Assembly: GCF_041248615.1 (NCBI RefSeq)
Contig: NZ_CP158426.1
DNA from: Escherichia coli
GTDB lineage: Bacteria; Pseudomonadota; Gammaproteobacteria; Enterobacterales; Enterobacteriaceae
Direction: 5' to 3' (one strand)
Length of the DNA: 64,000 nt
The notes beneath the pieces were generated by a model. It saw only the letters and a program-made list of their open reading frames with translations, had not been told where the DNA came from and ran no database searches. Both the position numbers and the translations under genes were made by a program. Each line of letters starts with the position of its first letter. Position 1 is the stretch's first letter. Below are positions 33,525 through 55,532 of the stretch, in pieces.

Positions 33525-33862
33525 AGCAACTCCTGAGTCCGGGTCTGTCCGTCTGAGCCTTTCCAGCTCACCCGGAGCGTAAGATGTTCGCCGTCGACGG
33601 CGGGTTTAACTGACATAAGCTGGCAGCGGGGCTCCCAGCGTCGGATGGCATCGACGGATTCGCGCACCACATGCGGAATGGCCCGGTCTACAGGCCAGTC
33701 GATATAAAGATGCAGATTGCTGCCGAACTCCGGGCGATGCGGGTCGCTGCCGCGGGGAGTCCGCAGGATAATTTGAATCGCCTGCCGGATATCATCCAGC
33801 CCCCGGACAATTTCGCCGGGAGCCTGCAGGGCTGGTTGCCAGAATACTGAGGTTGTTTTCAT
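33515..33862 (-). CDS. Baseplate wedge protein (gpW/gp25-like)
   Basis: 115 aa with IIRTPRGSDPHRPEFGSNL motif typical of gp25/gpW. Confidence 0.8.
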   Translation of the reverse strand: MKTTSVFWQPALQAPGEIVRGLDDIRQAIQIILRTPRGSDPHRPEFGSNLHLYIDWPVDRAIPHVVRESVDAIRRWEPRCQLMSVKPAVDGEHLTLRVSWKGSDGQTRTQELLWR

Positions 33863-33916
33863 GGGGGCAGTATTGCCCCCGTGCGGGAACGCTGATATTA
33901 AAGGCGTTTAAAAAGC

Positions 33917-36748: not shown

Positions 36749-39699
36749 CAGCGGTACTCCTTACGTTGTTTCTGAGCCAGCAGACGCTCCAGCATTTTTT
36801 CCAGCTCATGCAGACTCATATTCAGGGCACCAGTCAGTCCTGCAGGCGCTGTGGTTTCCCTGCCATTGAGGAAAAACTGAGGATTAAAGCTGACCTGGAT
36901 ACCACCAGACGTTCCACCGCCGGTTGCAGCTGCACCACGGCCTGAATATCCGGCAGTCAGGATTTCAGGCGAGGGGATACGGGGAACATCCGGTGTCATC
37001 TCATTTGCCAGACGTTGCCCTGGTAAAATCGATGCCCGGGTGGGGAGCGGAATAGCGGGCATGGAAGACAAACTATTGATTACGGCTCCGATCGCATTTT
37101 TAGCAGACGACATAAACACATTGATATCGGGCAACGGCATACTGAAGCGAACACCTGAAGTGTTATCCCGTATTTCTGGCCCCTGAATGCTCACGGGCAT
37201 TCTGGGGAGCAGTTCACTGGCCATTCGCTGCCCGGCCAGAGCTGCAAGCGGAGTGGTCCGCTGCAGGCCAATGGCGGCCCCCTGCGCGATATTGTCACCA
37301 AAGCCCATAAACACGCGGCTCGGCGAATGAATGCCCAGCTTTTCGCTGAACCAGCCACTGATGCTGTCGCCCATTCCGGTTACACTGGATTTGAGCGACT
37401 CCCATTTGTTTTTGATACCGTTAATCAGACCATCGACAAGATGGCCACCGAAGTCGGTAAACTTTGCCGGCAGATCAACACCAAGATATTTCAGCGCAGC
37501 TGCAAAGGCTTTATAGAGCAGACCTGCCGGCGACCAGTTAATCAGCAGCTTACCAGTTCCCGCGATACCGCCGTTAAAGGCTTCCTGAATGTCAGCCCAG
37601 CACTGTTTAAACCAGCTACTGATGCTGTCACCCATTCCGGTTACACTGGATTTGAGCGACCCCCATTTGTTTTTGATACCGTTAATCAGACCGTCGATAA
37701 GATGACCACCGAAGTCGGTGAACTTTGCCGGCAGAGTAACGCCGAAATATTTCAGCGCAGCCGCAAAGGCTTTATAGAGCAGACCTGCCGGCGACCAGTT
37801 AATCAGCAGCTTACCAGTTCCCGCGATACCGCCGTTAAAGGCTTCCTGAATGTCAGCCCAGCGCTGTTTAAACCAGCCACTGACTGCCCCCCAGTTGCGG
37901 TAGATAAGGTAAGCTGCTGCCGCGACAGCGGTGATAACGAGACCGATGGGATTCATCATCAGCGCACGTCCAATCCAGAGAACAGCACGTCCGGCGAGCA
38001 TAATTCCGCGAACCAGCCCCCCGGAGAGCACGCCACTCAGTGTTCTGGCTCCTCTGGCGACGGCGCTAAATCCGGTCACCAGCCAGCGGAGCTTACCGCC
38101 TTGCCCCAGTGCGAGCGACAGACGAAGCCAGTTGGCCCGAAGTAAAACAGCATTTTTCCAGACACTTACAAAGGGGGAAATAAGGAGATTCAGCCCCAGT
38201 TTGAGACCAACAGTCGCTATCTTAATCGCAAGGAGCGCACTGATGAGCTTAAAAGCCCCACTGACAAATTGCGGGTGAGTCGCTACCCAGTGTTTTGCCC
38301 CCTGAATGAGTGGAAGCAGTTCCTGAGTCAAAGAAATAAAAGATGGAGCTAATTGATCGCCCAGCGTAATTGCCAGATCGCGACTGCTGACCATAAGTGT
38401 TTTAGTGGCTTCAAGGGGAGATTTCAGCCGCTGATCATAAGCACTGGCAAGCAAATCGTTATCCGCAGCCCTGAGAGCACCGGCACGGATCTCTCGATAT
38501 CTGTCCATGTTGGCCAGCATCGGGCGGATAAATGCCATGACCTGCATATCCGCGAACATATCGCCCAGACCAAAGTTTTTCGCCAGAGCCTGAAGTGCCT
38601 CATCTCTTGCCGTATCATTCTTTATTTTCATGGCTGATTTGAAGCCGGCCAGCGCTTCGGGGCTTTTGGCATTGAGGTAACGTTCTATAACACTCAACAT
38701 CCCTTCAATCGGAGAGATCCCCGCAGCTTTATAACTCGCAATAGATCCCTGCAAATCAATACCCAGATCAGCAAACTGTTTCTGAGTATCGCGGGCAAAA
38801 ATTTTGGTAAGAAAGTTTTTAAAATTATTAGCTGCTTCGTCGGTGGAACCTGCACCGATTTTTGCTATCTGGAGACTGGCCCCGATTTCAGCAACAGCCT
38901 CTTTTCCACTGGCAATACCCGCCATCATTGGGGCCAGGGACTGCATCCACTTGACCTGATCCGGGATTTCAAATGACCCCTGGTCACCGGCATAAGCCAT
39001 AATATTCTGAACGGCACCAAAATCTCTGGCCGCACCTTTCAGGGAGTTTTGCCAGACTGCGGCCACTTTTGCCCAGTCCTGAGCAGACGTGCGTGTTGCC
39101 GTTGCCGCGCGGGCAATATCCGGCATCAGAAAACCGATATCTGACACATTATCAATATTGTCGCTGATGAGTGAACCCACCGCCTCCTGCAGCTCATCCT
39201 GATACTGATTGTATTTAAGCGCCCAGCCTTTTATCTGTCCGGCAAGTGCATCCCGCGTTTTATTGTCATATTTTGCGGTGATCGACATATCAATCATTTT
39301 GTCCTGAAAAGACATGGACTGCTGAACGGCAGGGGAAACCGTATGATAAACAGTCTGTGCCATGCCATACGCTTCAATCCCCTGACCATACAGCGCCATG
39401 CGGTTAGCTTTCAGCGCATCACTGGTAGCGGATGCCGCTGACAGACGGCGCTGCTGGCGCTCAATTTGCTCCATGGTGCGGCTTACCCGCAGCAGCTCGC
39501 TGTTGAGATGCTGCATCCGGGAAGAACCCAGTTGACCATAACGTTCTGTTGCACGGGTTAAAGCGTTCTGACGTTCCTGCAGGCGGCGTGAGGTATCGCT
39601 CAGGGAATCAAGCGCACGGCGGGTACCGCTCATTGCAGAACGGAATGTGCTGCCAATCATCCCGCCGATAACAACGCCGACTGAAAACTGTCCCGACAT
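36748..39699 (-). CDS. Tail tape measure protein with internal 87-aa tandem duplication
   Basis: 983 aa, alpha-helical Gly/Ala-rich; 261 bp direct repeat (blocks at 37534 and 37795). Confidence 0.85.
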   Translation of the reverse strand: MSGQFSVGVVIGGMIGSTFRSAMSGTRRALDSLSDTSRRLQERQNALTRATERYGQLGSSRMQHLNSELLRVSRTMEQIERQQRRLSAASATSDALKANRMALYGQGIEAYGMAQTVYHTVSPAVQQSMSFQDKMIDMSITAKYDNKTRDALAGQIKGWALKYNQYQDELQEAVGSLISDNIDNVSDIGFLMPDIARAATATRTSAQDWAKVAAVWQNSLKGAARDFGAVQNIMAYAGDQGSFEIPDQVKWMQSLAPMMAGIASGKEAVAEIGASLQIAKIGAGSTDEAANNFKNFLTKIFARDTQKQFADLGIDLQGSIASYKAAGISPIEGMLSVIERYLNAKSPEALAGFKSAMKIKNDTARDEALQALAKNFGLGDMFADMQVMAFIRPMLANMDRYREIRAGALRAADNDLLASAYDQRLKSPLEATKTLMVSSRDLAITLGDQLAPSFISLTQELLPLIQGAKHWVATHPQFVSGAFKLISALLAIKIATVGLKLGLNLLISPFVSVWKNAVLLRANWLRLSLALGQGGKLRWLVTGFSAVARGARTLSGVLSGGLVRGIMLAGRAVLWIGRALMMNPIGLVITAVAAAAYLIYRNWGAVSGWFKQRWADIQEAFNGGIAGTGKLLINWSPAGLLYKAFAAALKYFGVTLPAKFTDFGGHLIDGLINGIKNKWGSLKSSVTGMGDSISSWFKQCWADIQEAFNGGIAGTGKLLINWSPAGLLYKAFAAALKYLGVDLPAKFTDFGGHLVDGLINGIKNKWESLKSSVTGMGDSISGWFSEKLGIHSPSRVFMGFGDNIAQGAAIGLQRTTPLAALAGQRMASELLPRMPVSIQGPEIRDNTSGVRFSMPLPDINVFMSSAKNAIGAVINSLSSMPAIPLPTRASILPGQRLANEMTPDVPRIPSPEILTAGYSGRGAAATGGGTSGGIQVSFNPQFFLNGRETTAPAGLTGALNMSLHELEKMLERLLAQKQRKEYR

Positions 39700-44983: not shown

Positions 44984-46099
44984 TTACAGGCAGCGTGTGA
45001 CAGCAGCCTCATAGCTGATGCCTTCTTTTTTCGACAGTTCCACAGCCTTCTGGTGCAGTGCCAGACGGTCAGGGTCGGCTTCTGCAAACTCCGTCACATC
45101 CACTTTCACCGTGTCGCCGACACGCTCCTTCGTGGCCTGTTCGGCGAAGTTCATCACCGGCTCCCCGTCGGAGAGCAGCGAACGGAAGGCGGTGGCCAGC
45201 GGTGTGCGGCTTTCCCCCTCAGCAAACTCCACCGGCTTGTTGCCACCGGCGACGGCATCCAGCAGGGCAACCACCACGGAGGAGGCGCGGGGAGCCAGAC
45301 GGCCCTCTGCGACCAGTTTTTCTGCAAAGGCCACATTGTCCTTATGCAGTTGCTCCTGTCTGACCTGTGCATCACGCGCATCGCGATCAGCAGCCTGCTG
45401 CTTCAGGCGGCGGTTCTCCGCCTGAAGGGCTTCAATCTCTTCTTTTGTCATCGATGATTCCTCGTTACTTGCGGAAGACGGCACCTGGCCTGTCTCACTG
45501 AATTGCGCACCTGCTGCATCCTGCGACGGTGTGTCGCGGTACGCCTCTTCGCGCAGACTGTTGAGCTGCCATTCCGGCAGAACTTTTTCTGCTTCGTCCA
45601 GACTGAAGCGGGCGATCAGAAAATCGCGCAGCTTTCCCCACAGTGAGGCATTCGTGATGGCCTGCCAGTCGGCGAACTCCACCACACCTTCTTCCTGCTC
45701 ACTGAAGGACACCTGTTTCAGCCCTTTGACGGAAGGTGGCTGTGCCCCGAGAAAGCCCACATGGCGCAGGTAGAGCACGCCGGGCTTCGGATTGGACGGT
45801 GAATCCGGGAGGTAGAAAGAGGCAGACACTTTTTTGAATCGTCCGTCGGTGACCATCTCAGCAAACTGCGGGTCCAGCTGGGCAGGCTCTGCCATCAGAT
45901 CGACGCCGCTGAGCGACAGGGCTTTCACCCAGCCCCACGCCGGGTCTTCCGTTCTGGGATGACCAATCACGAGTGGTGCTTCATGGACGGACGGGTCATA
46001 GGCTTTCACGCAGGCGGCAAGATCGTCTGGCGTGAACGGCAGTTTTTTGCCGTGCATATCGGTATGAGTACCGGCTTTAAAAATGTGAATGGCTGACAT
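44984..46099 (-). CDS. Head protease / scaffold protein (Mu I-like)
   Basis: 371 aa; coiled-coil, Ala/Gln-rich C-terminus. Confidence 0.8.
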   Translation of the reverse strand: MSAIHIFKAGTHTDMHGKKLPFTPDDLAACVKAYDPSVHEAPLVIGHPRTEDPAWGWVKALSLSGVDLMAEPAQLDPQFAEMVTDGRFKKVSASFYLPDSPSNPKPGVLYLRHVGFLGAQPPSVKGLKQVSFSEQEEGVVEFADWQAITNASLWGKLRDFLIARFSLDEAEKVLPEWQLNSLREEAYRDTPSQDAAGAQFSETGQVPSSASNEESSMTKEEIEALQAENRRLKQQAADRDARDAQVRQEQLHKDNVAFAEKLVAEGRLAPRASSVVVALLDAVAGGNKPVEFAEGESRTPLATAFRSLLSDGEPVMNFAEQATKERVGDTVKVDVTEFAEADPDRLALHQKAVELSKKEGISYEAAVTRCL

Positions 46100-46313
46100 T
46101 TTGCTGTCCCGCGTTATGTTGTCGGAGACAGTTTGTGAGAAATGCGGGCCCGGCGATTTTAATCTGCTTTAGAAAACATCAGGGGAGAAGGACAGGGAAA
46201 GCAATGTGGTGAACCGGAGGCAGTTATAAAACAGAGGCTGTAAAGCCTTTATAAAGGTAATACAGCCCCTCATTCGCTGGCAATGATAAATCACCCGCCT
46301 GAAGAGAGAAAAC

Positions 46314-46772
46314 TCAGCGACGGGCCGCTGATTCAAGATGGCGGACAATGGTATCGAGGATGGGGATTACCACTTCAGGCTGTAGTTCTCCATCCCCCGT
46401 CACCGGCAGGAACGGGCGGGCCGGAAGTTCAACAGACTCATTACGCCCCGTTTTACCCCCGAACTGGTGAATGGCACCGTAAACAACGTTGGTCCCCACA
46501 ACCGCCTGCCGGTCGTCATGGTCGGTTGATACTGACCCCATCAGACGCCCGGTATCCTGCAGTGTCTGCCCGTCACGTTCTTCCGCTGCCAGCGAGGGCA
46601 TCCACCCCGGACGCCCCTCATCAAGAAAGTTAAACTGTGTTTCCGCCAGCAGGGTTCCGGCGATTTTGCGCATCGCGGGCTCCATGTCTGTGGCAGCCAG
46701 ATCCAGCGCACGGAGGCTCCGGCGCAGGGATTTATCATTAATGGTGATACTGACCAGGTTATCGGAAGCCAT
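46314..46772 (-). CDS. Virion morphogenesis protein (Mu G-like)
   Basis: 152 aa, conserved position after F. Confidence 0.75.
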   Translation of the reverse strand: MASDNLVSITINDKSLRRSLRALDLAATDMEPAMRKIAGTLLAETQFNFLDEGRPGWMPSLAAEERDGQTLQDTGRLMGSVSTDHDDRQAVVGTNVVYGAIHQFGGKTGRNESVELPARPFLPVTGDGELQPEVVIPILDTIVRHLESAARR

Positions 46773-53301: not shown

Positions 53302-53432
53302 GAAAATGTCTCCTTGTTGTGTGGAGACAGCATGGCAAAAGCGTGGCGCGGAGGATTTTAAAGCGCGTTAAGAGAGAGGCGTGTTCGGGGTATGCAGAAT
53401 ACACGCTGGATCACTCACAAAGGAGATACAGA

Positions 53433-53981
53433 ATGACAGTCACACCGAAGCCGACCATCACCGTCAGAGTGTCCGGGCCTGTGGGCAGCGGTAAAAGTTA
53501 CGTTCTGACGCGTATAAAAGAGATGGTGAAAAAGGAATTTGGAAAAAGCGTCATTGTCGATGCCGCAGTTGTGGACGACGAGCGTATCTGTCGGACGAAT
53601 GAGCTGCTTCAGGAGCAACTCATGAAGGTGTTACGCAAACTCACCGGTCAGACAACAAAATGTTTTTCAGCCCCGGAGTACGGGATACAGGAACACATCC
53701 CGGTGAACATGCCCCCCGTTAACCAGCCTCCCCGGTTCTTCGACGAATACATTCTGACACCGGAAAATAAAGCTGAGCATGAAGAGATCAAAGCGGCGTT
53801 GTTCCGGGAAATCAGGAAGATTGCTGAAATGCAGCTGGAGGGCGGGCTGGACAGAGTGATGGCGAGAGGAGAATGGGAATCGCTGTTTGAAAGAGTTTCC
53901 CCGGAATTGCTTCCCCTCGCACTGGCTATCGGGATTATGCAGACAGCGGATAAACCTCACTTACGTTCATTAAACACGTAA
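53433..53981 (+). CDS. Small P-loop NTPase of unknown function (cargo)
   Basis: 182 aa; Walker A GPVGSGKS after a beta-strand (TITVRVSGPVGSGKSYV); strong RBS AAAGGAG. Confidence 0.6.
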   Translation: MTVTPKPTITVRVSGPVGSGKSYVLTRIKEMVKKEFGKSVIVDAAVVDDERICRTNELLQEQLMKVLRKLTGQTTKCFSAPEYGIQEHIPVNMPPVNQPPRFFDEYILTPENKAEHEEIKAALFREIRKIAEMQLEGGLDRVMARGEWESLFERVSPELLPLALAIGIMQTADKPHLRSLNT

Positions 53982-54361
53982 CGCATAATCCGGGATACGC
54001 ATTCAGCGATGACTGCATTTTCACCGGTTTTTACTGCATCCAGAAGTGACTCTTTAAATGGTACGGGCCGGGGCTGCAGAAAGGTCGGCATGGCATTGAG
54101 CAGACAGAGCGTTTTTTCCGTGAGGACGACATCAGCCGCTCCCACAGCCAGCAACTGAGAGTAACGAATATAGCTGTTATCCCGAAGCCATATCAGCGTA
54201 TCAATAAAATACCGGCACTTTTTCTGATCGTGATCAACCTGGTCCGGGATATCGAAAAAACCAGAATAAATCAAAACCTGAGGAGCCGGATGCGTGTTCA
54301 GTAATCGGCAGAATATTTTGCCGGTGAGTACATAAAAATCATCATTTAAGGAGTGCATCAT
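53957..54361 (-). CDS. Hypothetical protein (cargo)
   Basis: 134 aa ORF, no recognisable motif; 3' end overlaps the P-loop gene by 25 bp; start codon overlaps that of the divergent 71-aa ORF. Confidence 0.4.
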   Translation of the reverse strand: MMHSLNDDFYVLTGKIFCRLLNTHPAPQVLIYSGFFDIPDQVDHDQKKCRYFIDTLIWLRDNSYIRYSQLLAVGAADVVLTEKTLCLLNAMPTFLQPRPVPFKESLLDAVKTGENAVIAECVSRIMRYVFNERK

Positions 54362-54575
54362 GAATCCCCGATTAACGTTAACAGAACATCAGCGCCGTGC
54401 CGAAGCAGTGAACAATGTTCTGGAAGATATTATCCGGTTACATCGCGGAGAACTGAGTGTCTGTCGTGCCACTGTTCATTTTCAGGAAATACAAAAGCAG
54501 TTTGATACTTCTGTTTTTGCAGAAGGGATCACTTATGCCCTGGACCAGATAAGGTCAGAAAATCGCCCCGGATAA
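54360..54575 (+). CDS. Hypothetical small protein (cargo)
   Basis: 71 aa; strong RBS TAAGGAG 7 nt upstream. Confidence 0.5.
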   Translation: MNPRLTLTEHQRRAEAVNNVLEDIIRLHRGELSVCRATVHFQEIQKQFDTSVFAEGITYALDQIRSENRPG

Positions 54576-54767: not shown

Positions 54768-55532
54768 ATGAAAATGCAGACATTACCCATCGTTCCATGG
54801 ATTGGTGGCAAACGTCGCCTGGCAAAACACATCCTGCCGCTGTTTCCGGCGCATGAATGTTACGTGGAGCCGTTCTGCGGCGCAGCAGCGCTCTATTTTC
54901 TTAAGACACCTGGTAAGCTCGAAGTCATTAACGATATCAATGGTGAACTGGTAAATCTGTATCGGGTGGTAAAACATCATCTGGAAGAATTTGTCCGCCA
55001 GTTCAAATGGGCGCTGGTCAGCCGGCAGATCTACAAATGGCTGCAGATCACCCCGACAGAAACACTGACGGATATCCAGCGTGCAGCACGGTTCTACTAC
55101 CTCCAGAAGCAGGCGTTTGGCGGCAAGGTGGCAGAGCACAGCTTCGGCACCTCCACCACATCCCCGCCACGCTTCAACCTGCTGCGTATCGAGGAAGAAC
55201 TGTCAGCGGCACACCTGCGGCTTTCCAGAACGGTGATAGAACACATGGACTGGCAACAGTGCATTGAGCGCTATGACCGTCCGCACACGCTGTTCTACTG
55301 TGACCCGCCGTATCTGGGTACAGAAGGCTATGGTGTGGATTTTCCTGAAGGGAACTACTCGCGGCTGGCAGAGCTGGCCCGGTGCATCAGAGGAAAGATG
55401 ATAATTTCGGTGAACGACATCCCGCAGATGCGCGAGGTGTTCACTGGACTGAACATACAGACAGTGAACATCAACTACAGTCTGGCAGGCAAATCAACTC
55501 CACGCCGTGAGCTGGTGATCTGCAATTTCTAA
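54768..55532 (+). CDS. Orphan Dam-like N6-adenine DNA methyltransferase
   Basis: 254 aa; motif I VEPFCGAAALYF and catalytic DPPY (FYCDPPYLG); N-terminus WIGGKRRLAKHILPLFP resembles Dam; no restriction partner nearby. Confidence 0.85.
   Translation: MKMQTLPIVPWIGGKRRLAKHILPLFPAHECYVEPFCGAAALYFLKTPGKLEVINDINGELVNLYRVVKHHLEEFVRQFKWALVSRQIYKWLQITPTETLTDIQRAARFYYLQKQAFGGKVAEHSFGTSTTSPPRFNLLRIEEELSAAHLRLSRTVIEHMDWQQCIERYDRPHTLFYCDPPYLGTEGYGVDFPEGNYSRLAELARCIRGKMIISVNDIPQMREVFTGLNIQTVNINYSLAGKSTPRRELVICNF

Follow-up and report, generated by a model that had tools for sequence, protein, structure and literature searches.

A predicted Mor-dependent late promoter behind a candidate terminator in the G-I gap of a BcepMu-like Escherichia coli prophage

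What is the role of a 214-bp non-coding gap in an otherwise tightly packed array of phage late genes? The gap (46100-46313) lies in a 64,000-nt stretch of E. coli DNA (contig NZ_CP158426.1), hereafter the window, which carries a BcepMu-like (genus Bcepmuvirus) transposable prophage with its late genes on the minus strand. An earlier note on this DNA had interpreted the gap as an internal terminator and a putative activator-dependent late promoter in front of the protease/scaffold gene, by position analogous to the promoter of gene I in phage Mu. Hairpin stability, a shared dyad/-10 geometry and the parallel with the Mu G-I region support this interpretation. The gap is very probably the boundary of two late transcription units, where a terminator is followed by a promoter that would depend on an activator of the Mor family. 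That the gap holds such a promoter, and that the prophage has a late regulon of four promoters, can be stated with high confidence for a computational result.

The gap is real and is the biggest intergenic stretch of the late arm, in which the other measured gaps have lengths of about 157, 97 and 54 bp and none of the rest exceeds 15 bp. The holin, lysin, terminase, portal, Mu-F-like and Mu-G-like genes lie upstream of it, and the protease, major capsid and tail genes downstream. The gene that ends at the gap is the Mu-G-like virion morphogenesis gene (46314-46772, minus; PF05069, E 6e-23). The gene that begins behind it encodes a 371-aa protein without a Pfam match, for which the label protease/scaffold holds by its PHROG match (Table 1) and its 49.7% identity to BcepMu gp32 with nested gp33, the annotated equivalents of Mu I and Z. 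The gap is therefore located between homologues of Mu genes G and I, and the order of terminator and promoter is also that of Mu. For comparison, 53 related loci were collected from viral contigs and 12 distinct versions of the gap were aligned, close relatives being referred to as group A and a second group, with 73-74% protein identity, as group B. Around the gap, sequence identity was 99.5% to Escherichia phage PhiKM and about 86% to Klebsiella phage KP12, and the gap sequence was found in 636 of 5426 complete E. coli genomes, ST131 strains among them.

The comparison with the region upstream of the lysis genes (53302-53432), which the earlier note had proposed as a check, revealed a shared activator-type motif. 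The local alignment of the two regions scored 28 versus 16.2 +/- 2.3 expected (z 5.2, reached in 2 of 1000 shuffles). When 18 distinct versions of the lysis upstream region were aligned with the 12 gap versions on the shared TTAAAA, the sequence more than about 20 bp upstream of it was unrelated between the lysis versions, while nnTAA-N6-TTAAA was constant. A hexamer nAnnCT was located exactly 22 nt past this element in all lysis and protease versions. At the gap the element lies within a 22-mer, TTTTCTAAAGCAGATTAAAAKC (46176-46155), which is unchanged in the 12 diverged relatives, and consists of two 5-bp inverted repeats and a 6-bp spacer. The same plan is published for Mu (PMC4390567), where a Mor dimer binds 16 bp made up of inverted repeats of 5 bp on either side of a G/C-rich 6-bp spacer, with the centre at -43.5; Mor takes over from the -35 element, and the middle promoter Pm keeps a recognisable -10. 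PMC2582627 and PMC4461284 likewise describe Mu late promoters with -10 hexamers and no -35.

No -35-like hexamer was found 17 bp upstream of the predicted -10, CAAACT. An A at position 2 and a T at position 6, as expected of a -10 element, were present at the fixed distance in all copies and relatives, the hexamers being CAAACT, CAGACT, CACACT, GATGCT, CATGCT, CATACT, AATACT, CAAGAT and GATGAT. The distance of 22 nt between element and hexamer equals that of Mu Pm, and the position of the dyad centre at about -43 depends on the predicted start.

The resulting pattern, TAA-N6-TTAAW-N22-NANNHT, had four exact matches in the window versus 0.03 expected, with a maximum of one in 100 shuffles. All four lie on the late strand, and each occupies one of the late arm's few gaps, before the lysis, protease, tail chaperone and baseplate genes (Table 1). 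The tail-chaperone and baseplate sites were not used in deriving the pattern, while W was chosen so that Mu Pm would fit; in the Mu genome the sole match is Pm. Spacings of 21 or 23 nt instead of 22 gave unrelated matches only. The pattern was found at homologous places in PhiKM, KP12, about 40 IMG/VR prophages, BcepMu, phiE255, one Ralstonia phage and one Pseudomonas phage, and the baseplate-gene site is present in both KP12 and PhiKM. A third copy of the first, shorter motif, at 28889-28905, was dismissed as chance, lying within the coding sequence of a Gin-like invertase. No description of Mor-boxes in BcepMu-type phages was found in the literature searched, which did not include the original BcepMu paper (Summer et al. 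2004).

A candidate activator is encoded by the same prophage type. In strain LH50-c, whose gap is 100% identical, a single Mor-family protein of 132 aa is encoded about 18 kb from the gap (L057 1724-2122). Its identity to Mu Mor was 31% (E 9e-16) and that to Mu C 35% (E 5e-15), and it matched PHROG 532, 'late transcriptional activator'. The late-side end of the prophage is at base 28404 of the window, and LH50-c places the early-side end and the activator gene beyond base 64000, the gene about 300 bp past the right end of the window. Direct observations are the geometry and conservation of the sequence elements, the degree to which these exceed chance, and the finding that identical prophages carry the activator gene.

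From these elements the following course of transcription can be proposed. Transcripts from the lysis promoter would traverse the terminase, portal, F-like and G-like genes and would be stopped, at least partly, at the two-tier hairpin (46270-46233) and its U-rich tail. Some 60 bp beyond, the single Mor-family activator would bind the dyad as a dimer (or higher oligomer). The dyad is centred about 43 bp upstream of the predicted start and would replace a -35 element. The bound activator would enable sigma-70 RNA polymerase to use the weak -10 CAAACT, and transcription would run from near 46123 into the protease/scaffold, capsid and downstream genes. In this way one activator would turn on four late units: lysis, protease, tail chaperone and baseplate.

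Table 1. Predicted and annotated features in and around the gap, with the three sister promoters of the prophage.
Feature	Position	Strand	Remarks
Mor-box TCTAA-AGCAGA-TTAAA, 16-bp dyad	46173-46158	minus	predicted binding site of the Mor-family activator
Spacer, 22 nt	46136-46157	minus	first ~13 bases vary freely; length constant; T-tract at end
Predicted -10 CAAACT	46135-46130	minus	CAGACT or CACACT in relatives; A2, C5 and T6 invariant
Predicted transcription start	46122-46123	minus	7-8 nt past the hexamer; leader ~24 nt; from the geometry of Mu Pm and late promoters
Inverted repeat CTGTC.CCG ... CGG.GACAG	46104-46131	minus	right arm 46110-46104 holds Shine-Dalgarno-like GGGA; left arm between -10 and predicted start
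Head maturation protease/scaffold gene, 371 aa	44984-46099	minus	first gene of the unit behind the gap promoter; PHROG 976, E 9e-163
Two-tier hairpin AGGGGCTGTA-TTA-CCTT-TATA-AAGG-CTT-TACAGCCTCT	46270-46233	minus	candidate intrinsic terminator of the lysis-to-G transcript
U-rich tail GTTTTATAA	46232-46224	minus	directly after the two-tier hairpin
Pyrimidine-rich tract	46177-46223	minus	poorly conserved; between terminator and promoter
Block I GGCGGGTGATTTATC	46285-46299	minus	kept in both diverged groups of relatives; candidate gyrase core
Block II 16-mer TTTATAAAGGCTTTAC	46240-46255	minus	inside the two-tier hairpin; identical in Burkholderia phage BcepMu
Weak hairpin TCAGCGGCCCGTCGCTGA + GTTTTCTCTC	46331-46314	minus	includes stop TGA 46316-46314 of the Mu-G-like gene; followed by GTTTTCTCTCTTC 46313-46301
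Sister promoter, holin/lysis	53372-53329	minus	Mor-box CTTAA-CGCGCT-TTAAA 53372-53357, 22 nt, CATGCT 53334-53329
Sister promoter, tail assembly chaperone/tape-measure	40263-40220	minus	CTTAA-TCTCCT-TTAAT, 22 nt, CATACT; kept in relatives
Sister promoter, GPW/gp25 baseplate, 54-bp gap	33912-33869	minus	TTTAA-ACGCCT-TTAAT, 22 nt, AATACT; ATG 6 nt later

The gap promoter was compared with the known promoters of Mu. Mu Pm reads AGTAA-AGCCGG-TTAAT, 22 nt, TATCCT, and shares with the gap the plan of the 16-bp element, the 22-nt distance, the missing -35, a T-rich stretch upstream of the box, a phage-encoded Mor-family activator and a terminator near the box. By its box and geometry the predicted promoter is a member of the known Mor/C-dependent class. 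It differs from Pm in that four copies would drive late genes here, whereas Pm serves a single middle operon encoding a second activator; moreover, Mu has two Mor/C-family genes and the prophage one, and the spacer of the protease promoter is less G/C-rich than that of Pm. The C sites of the Mu late promoters, (TT)AT-N6-ATAA / CCATAACCCC, are unlike nnTAA-N6-TTAAw. The putative activator site in the gap resembles the Mor site of Pm more than these C sites, which refines the earlier reading, and the regulon would be comparable to that of Plys, PI, PP and Pmom of Mu, but with a Pm-like box.

In the annotated G-I intergenic region of Mu (196 bp), a gyrase cut site is followed by a predicted terminator and then by the late promoter PI. 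PI resembles the gap promoter in its place between G and I behind a hairpin with a GUUUUAU tail, in a T-tract in the spacer without a -35, in its -10 CAAACT as the PI hexamer was placed in this analysis, and in an inverted repeat across the start region that ends beside the ribosome-binding site. At the level of sequence the two gaps showed weak similarity confined to a C/T tract, TTGCTTTCCCTGTCCTTCTCC (46177-46202) in the window and TTCCTTTCACTTTCTTTCTCC (17954-17974) in Mu, which in both lies between terminator and late promoter; this likeness is borderline (12 of 300 shuffles). The gap of BcepMu, the type of Bcepmuvirus, between gp31 and gp32, the equivalents of G and I, is 202 bp long and aligned with the window gap at a score reached in 0 of 300 shuffles. 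Its Mor-boxes read CGTAA-/GCTAA-AGCCGA-TTAAA, one of them also standing before the holin gene. The predicted -10, GATGAT, is located 7 nt before the likely start codon, so a leader is missing, and there is no GCGGNTGATTT block.

The terminator was evaluated by folding and by comparison. The earlier note had mentioned a short hairpin followed by a T-run, and this is present: a terminator-pattern scan found AGGCTTTACAGCCT + CTGTTTTATA at 46248-46235 (minus), and also picked up TCAGCGGCCCGTCGCTGA + GTTTTCTCTC at 46331-46314. Such simple hairpin/T-run patterns were not above chance locally (7 sites in 4.5 kb versus 3.8 +/- 1.8 expected), and the case for a terminator therefore rests on folding energy and the comparison with Mu. 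The full two-tier structure of 38 nt, in which a 3x3 internal loop separates an outer stem of 10 bp from an inner stem of 4 bp, is above chance, with -19.6 kcal/mol, z -4.7 and 0 of 200 shuffles equally stable. The tract after it reads GUUUUAUAA, with only four consecutive U, and a stem-loop with a U-tract, as expected of an intrinsic terminator, is thus present. The predicted terminator of the Mu G-I region likewise folds in two tiers (-19.8 kcal/mol, z -4.2) and is followed by GUUUUAUC, the GUUUUAU tail being common to both. The weak hairpin at the stop codon of the G-like gene (-8.8 kcal/mol, z -1.5) was indistinguishable from chance, and its conservation is confounded by the coding sequence. 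A second module of terminator and then Mor-box was found at 40290-40220, where a hairpin, GGGGCTCCGGCCCC + TTCTTCTT, immediately precedes the tail-chaperone promoter.

Among the relatives, group A and KP12 (6 of 12 sequences) retain the outer stem, with one change from G-U to G-C. BcepMu has the identical TTTATAAAGGCTTTAC inside a 13-pair hairpin, whose outer arms differ (CCCGTAAAG/CTTTACGGG). A hairpin at this place is common among the relatives and its form is not fixed. Block II is identical in BcepMu, although the proteins encoded by the flanking protease genes share only about 50% identity, and the core of the block, TTTATAAAG, is also present in the Ralstonia and Pseudomonas relatives. 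That block II might be a repeated operator was considered and rejected: it is unique in the prophage, and its near matches are the 261-bp coding repeats of the tape-measure gene.

Several points weigh against the reading of the gap as terminator plus Mor-dependent promoter. Group B lacks the outer stem and carries a different GC-rich hairpin just upstream of the conserved core, while the U-tail has degenerated in KP12 (CGCTTTGCA) and reads differently in group B; given the stem loss in group B and the poor tail of KP12, termination may be partial or lineage-specific. The dyad is imperfect (half-sites matching at 4 of 5 positions) and its spacer AGCAGA is only half G/C. Activator binding and dependence, the start site, the termination efficiency and the timing were deduced from sequence. 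The assignment of CAAACT to Mu PI came from an alignment of four annotated 67-bp late-promoter features and not from the original mapping. In BcepMu and the Ralstonia phage, the predicted -10 is only 6-7 nt before the protease ATG, which would imply a leaderless mRNA or another start in these phages and warns that the hexamer assignment could be wrong. Finally, an alternative -10, TAAAAT (46161-46156), lies inside the conserved element itself.

With TAAAAT as the -10, transcription would start at about 46149 with a leader of about 50 nt, in which a hairpin CTGTCTCC/GGGACAG would sequester the ribosome-binding site, and what is conserved downstream of TTAAAATC would serve to control translation and not as a -10 region. 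The hexamer TAAAAT agrees with TATAAT at 5 of 6 positions and is conserved, the start would give BcepMu and the Ralstonia phage a normal leader in place of a leaderless mRNA, and the inverted repeat before the protease gene is pairable in 12 of 12 relatives, with an analogous repeat over the holin Shine-Dalgarno sequence. The loci L047 and L048 also show two compensatory pairs in a hairpin right before the ATG. The T at -7 is one of the most important positions of a -10 element. It is lost in KP12, group B, BcepMu, phiE255 and the Ralstonia and Pseudomonas phages, where the hexamer reads TAAAAG. The tail and baseplate sister sites read TTAATATC, without a good hexamer there, and a start from TAAAAT leaves unexplained both the exact 22-nt distance from box to NANNHT in four promoters and Mu Pm and the Mor-dyad form of the conserved element. 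TAAAAT was our first reading of the -10 and was demoted after TAAAAG was seen in most lineages together with the fixed 22-nt geometry; we consider it improbable, and the -10 is most likely CAAACT rather than the eye-catching TAAAAT.

The inverted repeat itself has a folding energy of -10.7 kcal/mol (z -1.8). In the 12 sequences, 100% of the cells are paired, three pairs change one-sidedly to G-U, and neither a broken pair nor a double compensation was found. The lysis promoter has TGTCTCC/GGAGACA across the holin Shine-Dalgarno sequence. If transcription starts at about 46123, as predicted from CAAACT, RNA made from this promoter would lack the left arm of the repeat, which only read-through RNA would contain. 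Repeats of this kind, which straddle the predicted starts, might act as fold-back traps that silence translation from read-through RNA, which is an idea and not a finding. Davis, Simons and Kleckner reportedly described such fold-back inhibition in IS10/IS50 in 1985, with the 5' arm of a repeat upstream of the element's own start and the 3' arm over the ribosome-binding site, so that the hairpin forms, and silences, only in read-through RNA. Starts at about 46123 and 53322 would make the protease and holin promoters conform to this layout, a resemblance of architecture only.

At the baseplate promoter, a short GC-rich inverted repeat, GGGGGC-AATACT-GCCCCC (33862-33885), has the predicted -10 in its loop, with the ATG 6-7 nt on. 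The same layout was observed in L059 (8965-8990) and, directly before the protease ATG, in L047 and L048, which differ by two compensatory pairs (GGCCCG/CGGGCC versus GGGTCG/CGACCC). A -10 in the loop with the ATG 6-7 nt after it would mean either a leaderless mRNA or a hairpin in read-through RNA.

Conservation among the 12 gap versions is blocky, the blocks being GGCGGGTGATTTAYC; CCTTTATAAAGG(C)TTTACAGCC; TTTTCTAAAGCAGATTAAAAKC; and TTTnnCnCAnACTGTCTCCGACAAC...GGGACAGCAAAATG, with two freely varying stretches between them, the pyrimidine-rich tract and a 13-nt stretch. This bears on the question whether the gap encodes a small protein, either from a 59-codon open reading frame (ORF) with a TTG start (46169-46348, overlapping G), the only same-strand ORF in the gap, or from a 41-codon GTG version annotated as KP12_270. 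The frame is open in most relatives and one such gene is annotated in KP12, but an open frame is the default of a pyrimidine-rich strand, and the conservation follows blocks and geometry, not codons. The ORF had no PHROG match, the GTG start is absent in L031, L032 and L035, the last of which also has a stop in the frame, and 1-nt indels cause frameshifts in part of group B. With no family and a frame broken in part of the relatives, the ORF was rejected, a coding role being hardly credible.

Transcription in the opposite direction was also considered. A sigma-70-like site, CTGACA-16-TATGTT (46093-46120, plus), could drive an antisense transcript back across the gap, and it scores 9 of 12 matches. 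One site of this type was found in 4.5 kb versus 1.8 expected, its conservation is explained by the overlap with the protease start and leader, and no plus-strand terminator follows it, which makes an antisense transcript very improbable. A search of the gap with Rfam covariance models gave nothing at the gathering score, the best hits (E 1.8-5.4) being to unrelated eukaryotic or CRISPR families.

One feature of the Mu G-I region that the earlier note had missed is the central strong gyrase site (SGS), and a similar site may be present here. In this proposal the 5' half of the gap (about 46300-46225) would bind gyrase, which would wrap the I-proximal arm and supercoil the prophage, and the ends would then synapse for replicative transposition. 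Such a site is compatible with a promoter and a terminator in the same gap, as in the Mu G-I gap, where the gyrase cut site lies 20 bp past G, ahead of the terminator and PI. The Mu site must be central, as stated in the title of Pato 1994 and in a review (PMC10052514), and only its right arm is needed (PMC10052514). Measured in LH50-c, whose prophage is 37.6 kb long, the gap lies 0.7-0.9 kb off the exact centre, the BcepMu gap is at 50.7-51.3% of its genome and that of Mu at 48.7%, but a central position may merely follow conserved gene order. Blocks I and II are kept across lineages despite diverged flanks. Block I holds GCGGGTGATTT, which matches the reverse complement of the Mu cleavage core (GCGGCT|GATT|TTATGCC) in 10 of 11 positions and exactly matches the core variant in the fragment used by Sutormin et al.; this 11-mer match was, however, chosen after inspection and is inverted relative to Mu. 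Within block I, GCGGNTGATTT is unique in the window (0.14 expected), and in Mu it is likewise unique and located at the SGS cleavage core.

The 63-bp I-proximal arm has an A/T periodicity of 10.5-11 bp in the top 0.7-0.8% of the window, which is kept in KP12 and group B. No such periodicity was seen in the G-proximal arm, an asymmetry also found in Mu. The periodicity nevertheless discriminates poorly, for the right arm of Mu itself ranks only in the top 5-16%, depending on the period (about 10% at 10.7 bp). A crude match count to the published 133-bp gyrase consensus was discarded because it failed to rank the Mu SGS near the top of the Mu genome. Local alignments with the G-I gaps of Mu and of Sp18-type prophages, in either orientation, were not above chance (108 of 300 and 27 of 300 shuffles), and sequence homology with the Mu SGS was therefore dropped. 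What the gap shares with that site is the place in the G-I gap, the near-centre position, an apparently phased A/T arm on the I side only and the 11-mer resemblance, with no significant homology. A gyrase site here is thus a tentative proposal, possible but less likely than not to be correct. An extended version, which we regard as speculative, makes the G-I gap of BcepMu-type phages a three-in-one element like that of Mu, in which GGCGGGTGATTTAYC, TTTATAAAGGCTTTAC and the phased arm would form a gyrase site, joined by fold-back traps on the lysis and head genes. In this version, which is improbable, the gyrase site would have evolved or persisted without recognisable homology to that of Mu, and the traps would prevent lysis and head genes from being translated off read-through transcripts that enter a randomly inserted prophage.

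Further observations concern the rest of the prophage and its surroundings. The late-side end (28404-28444, ...GCATTTATCGCGCGGCGCA) has two CATTTATCGC repeats, which probably bind the transposase. The adjoining ORF (28024-28401) resembles a fragment from the C-terminus of a YadA-type adhesin, so the insertion site differs from that of LH50-c, an ABC-transporter gene, as expected of a transposable phage. A Gin-like serine invertase gene (about 28480-29049, minus) next to the tail-fibre genes is apparently frameshifted, and its LH50-c homologue is annotated as a pseudogene. The tape-measure gene contains 261-bp tandem repeats (CTCTATAAAG every 261 bp; window 37502-37778, L057 28642-29434), of which a pattern search found two copies in the window and four in LH50-c; the copy number probably accounts for the difference in gene length, 2952 bp versus 3474 bp. 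Between a dam-type methylase gene (54768-55532) and the lysis promoter lies an accessory cassette (53433-54575) with ORFs for a 182-aa P-loop ATPase-like, a 134-aa and a 71-aa protein. The cassette is swapped for unrelated DNA in otherwise near-identical prophages, which indicates a variable hotspot, and PADLOC found only weak SngB/HerA P-loop matches among these accessory genes. In host DNA, two copies of naRNA4 (REP/BIME-type; 21634-21711 and 21734-21812, minus) were the sole Rfam matches in the window. In the Sp18-type prophage of E. coli O157:H7, RefSeq annotates a 'tRNA-OTHER' (L064 265-345) on the opposite strand between the F-like and G-like genes.

In conclusion, this work adds to the known Mor/C-dependent promoters a four-promoter late-regulon signature that is kept across the BcepMu lineage. 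It provides a testable regulatory map for a very common E. coli prophage, with one Mor-family activator, four predicted promoters and a searchable signature that is usable for late-operon annotation and inducible reporters. Should the gap also prove to be a gyrase site, a peculiarity of Mu, the central site needed for synapsis of the ends, would extend to a second large group of transposable phages. The Mor-box design is conserved from phages of Enterobacteria to those of Burkholderia, Ralstonia and Pseudomonas, and the geometry known from the middle promoter of Mu apparently represents the ancestral plan of late promoters in the BcepMu lineage.

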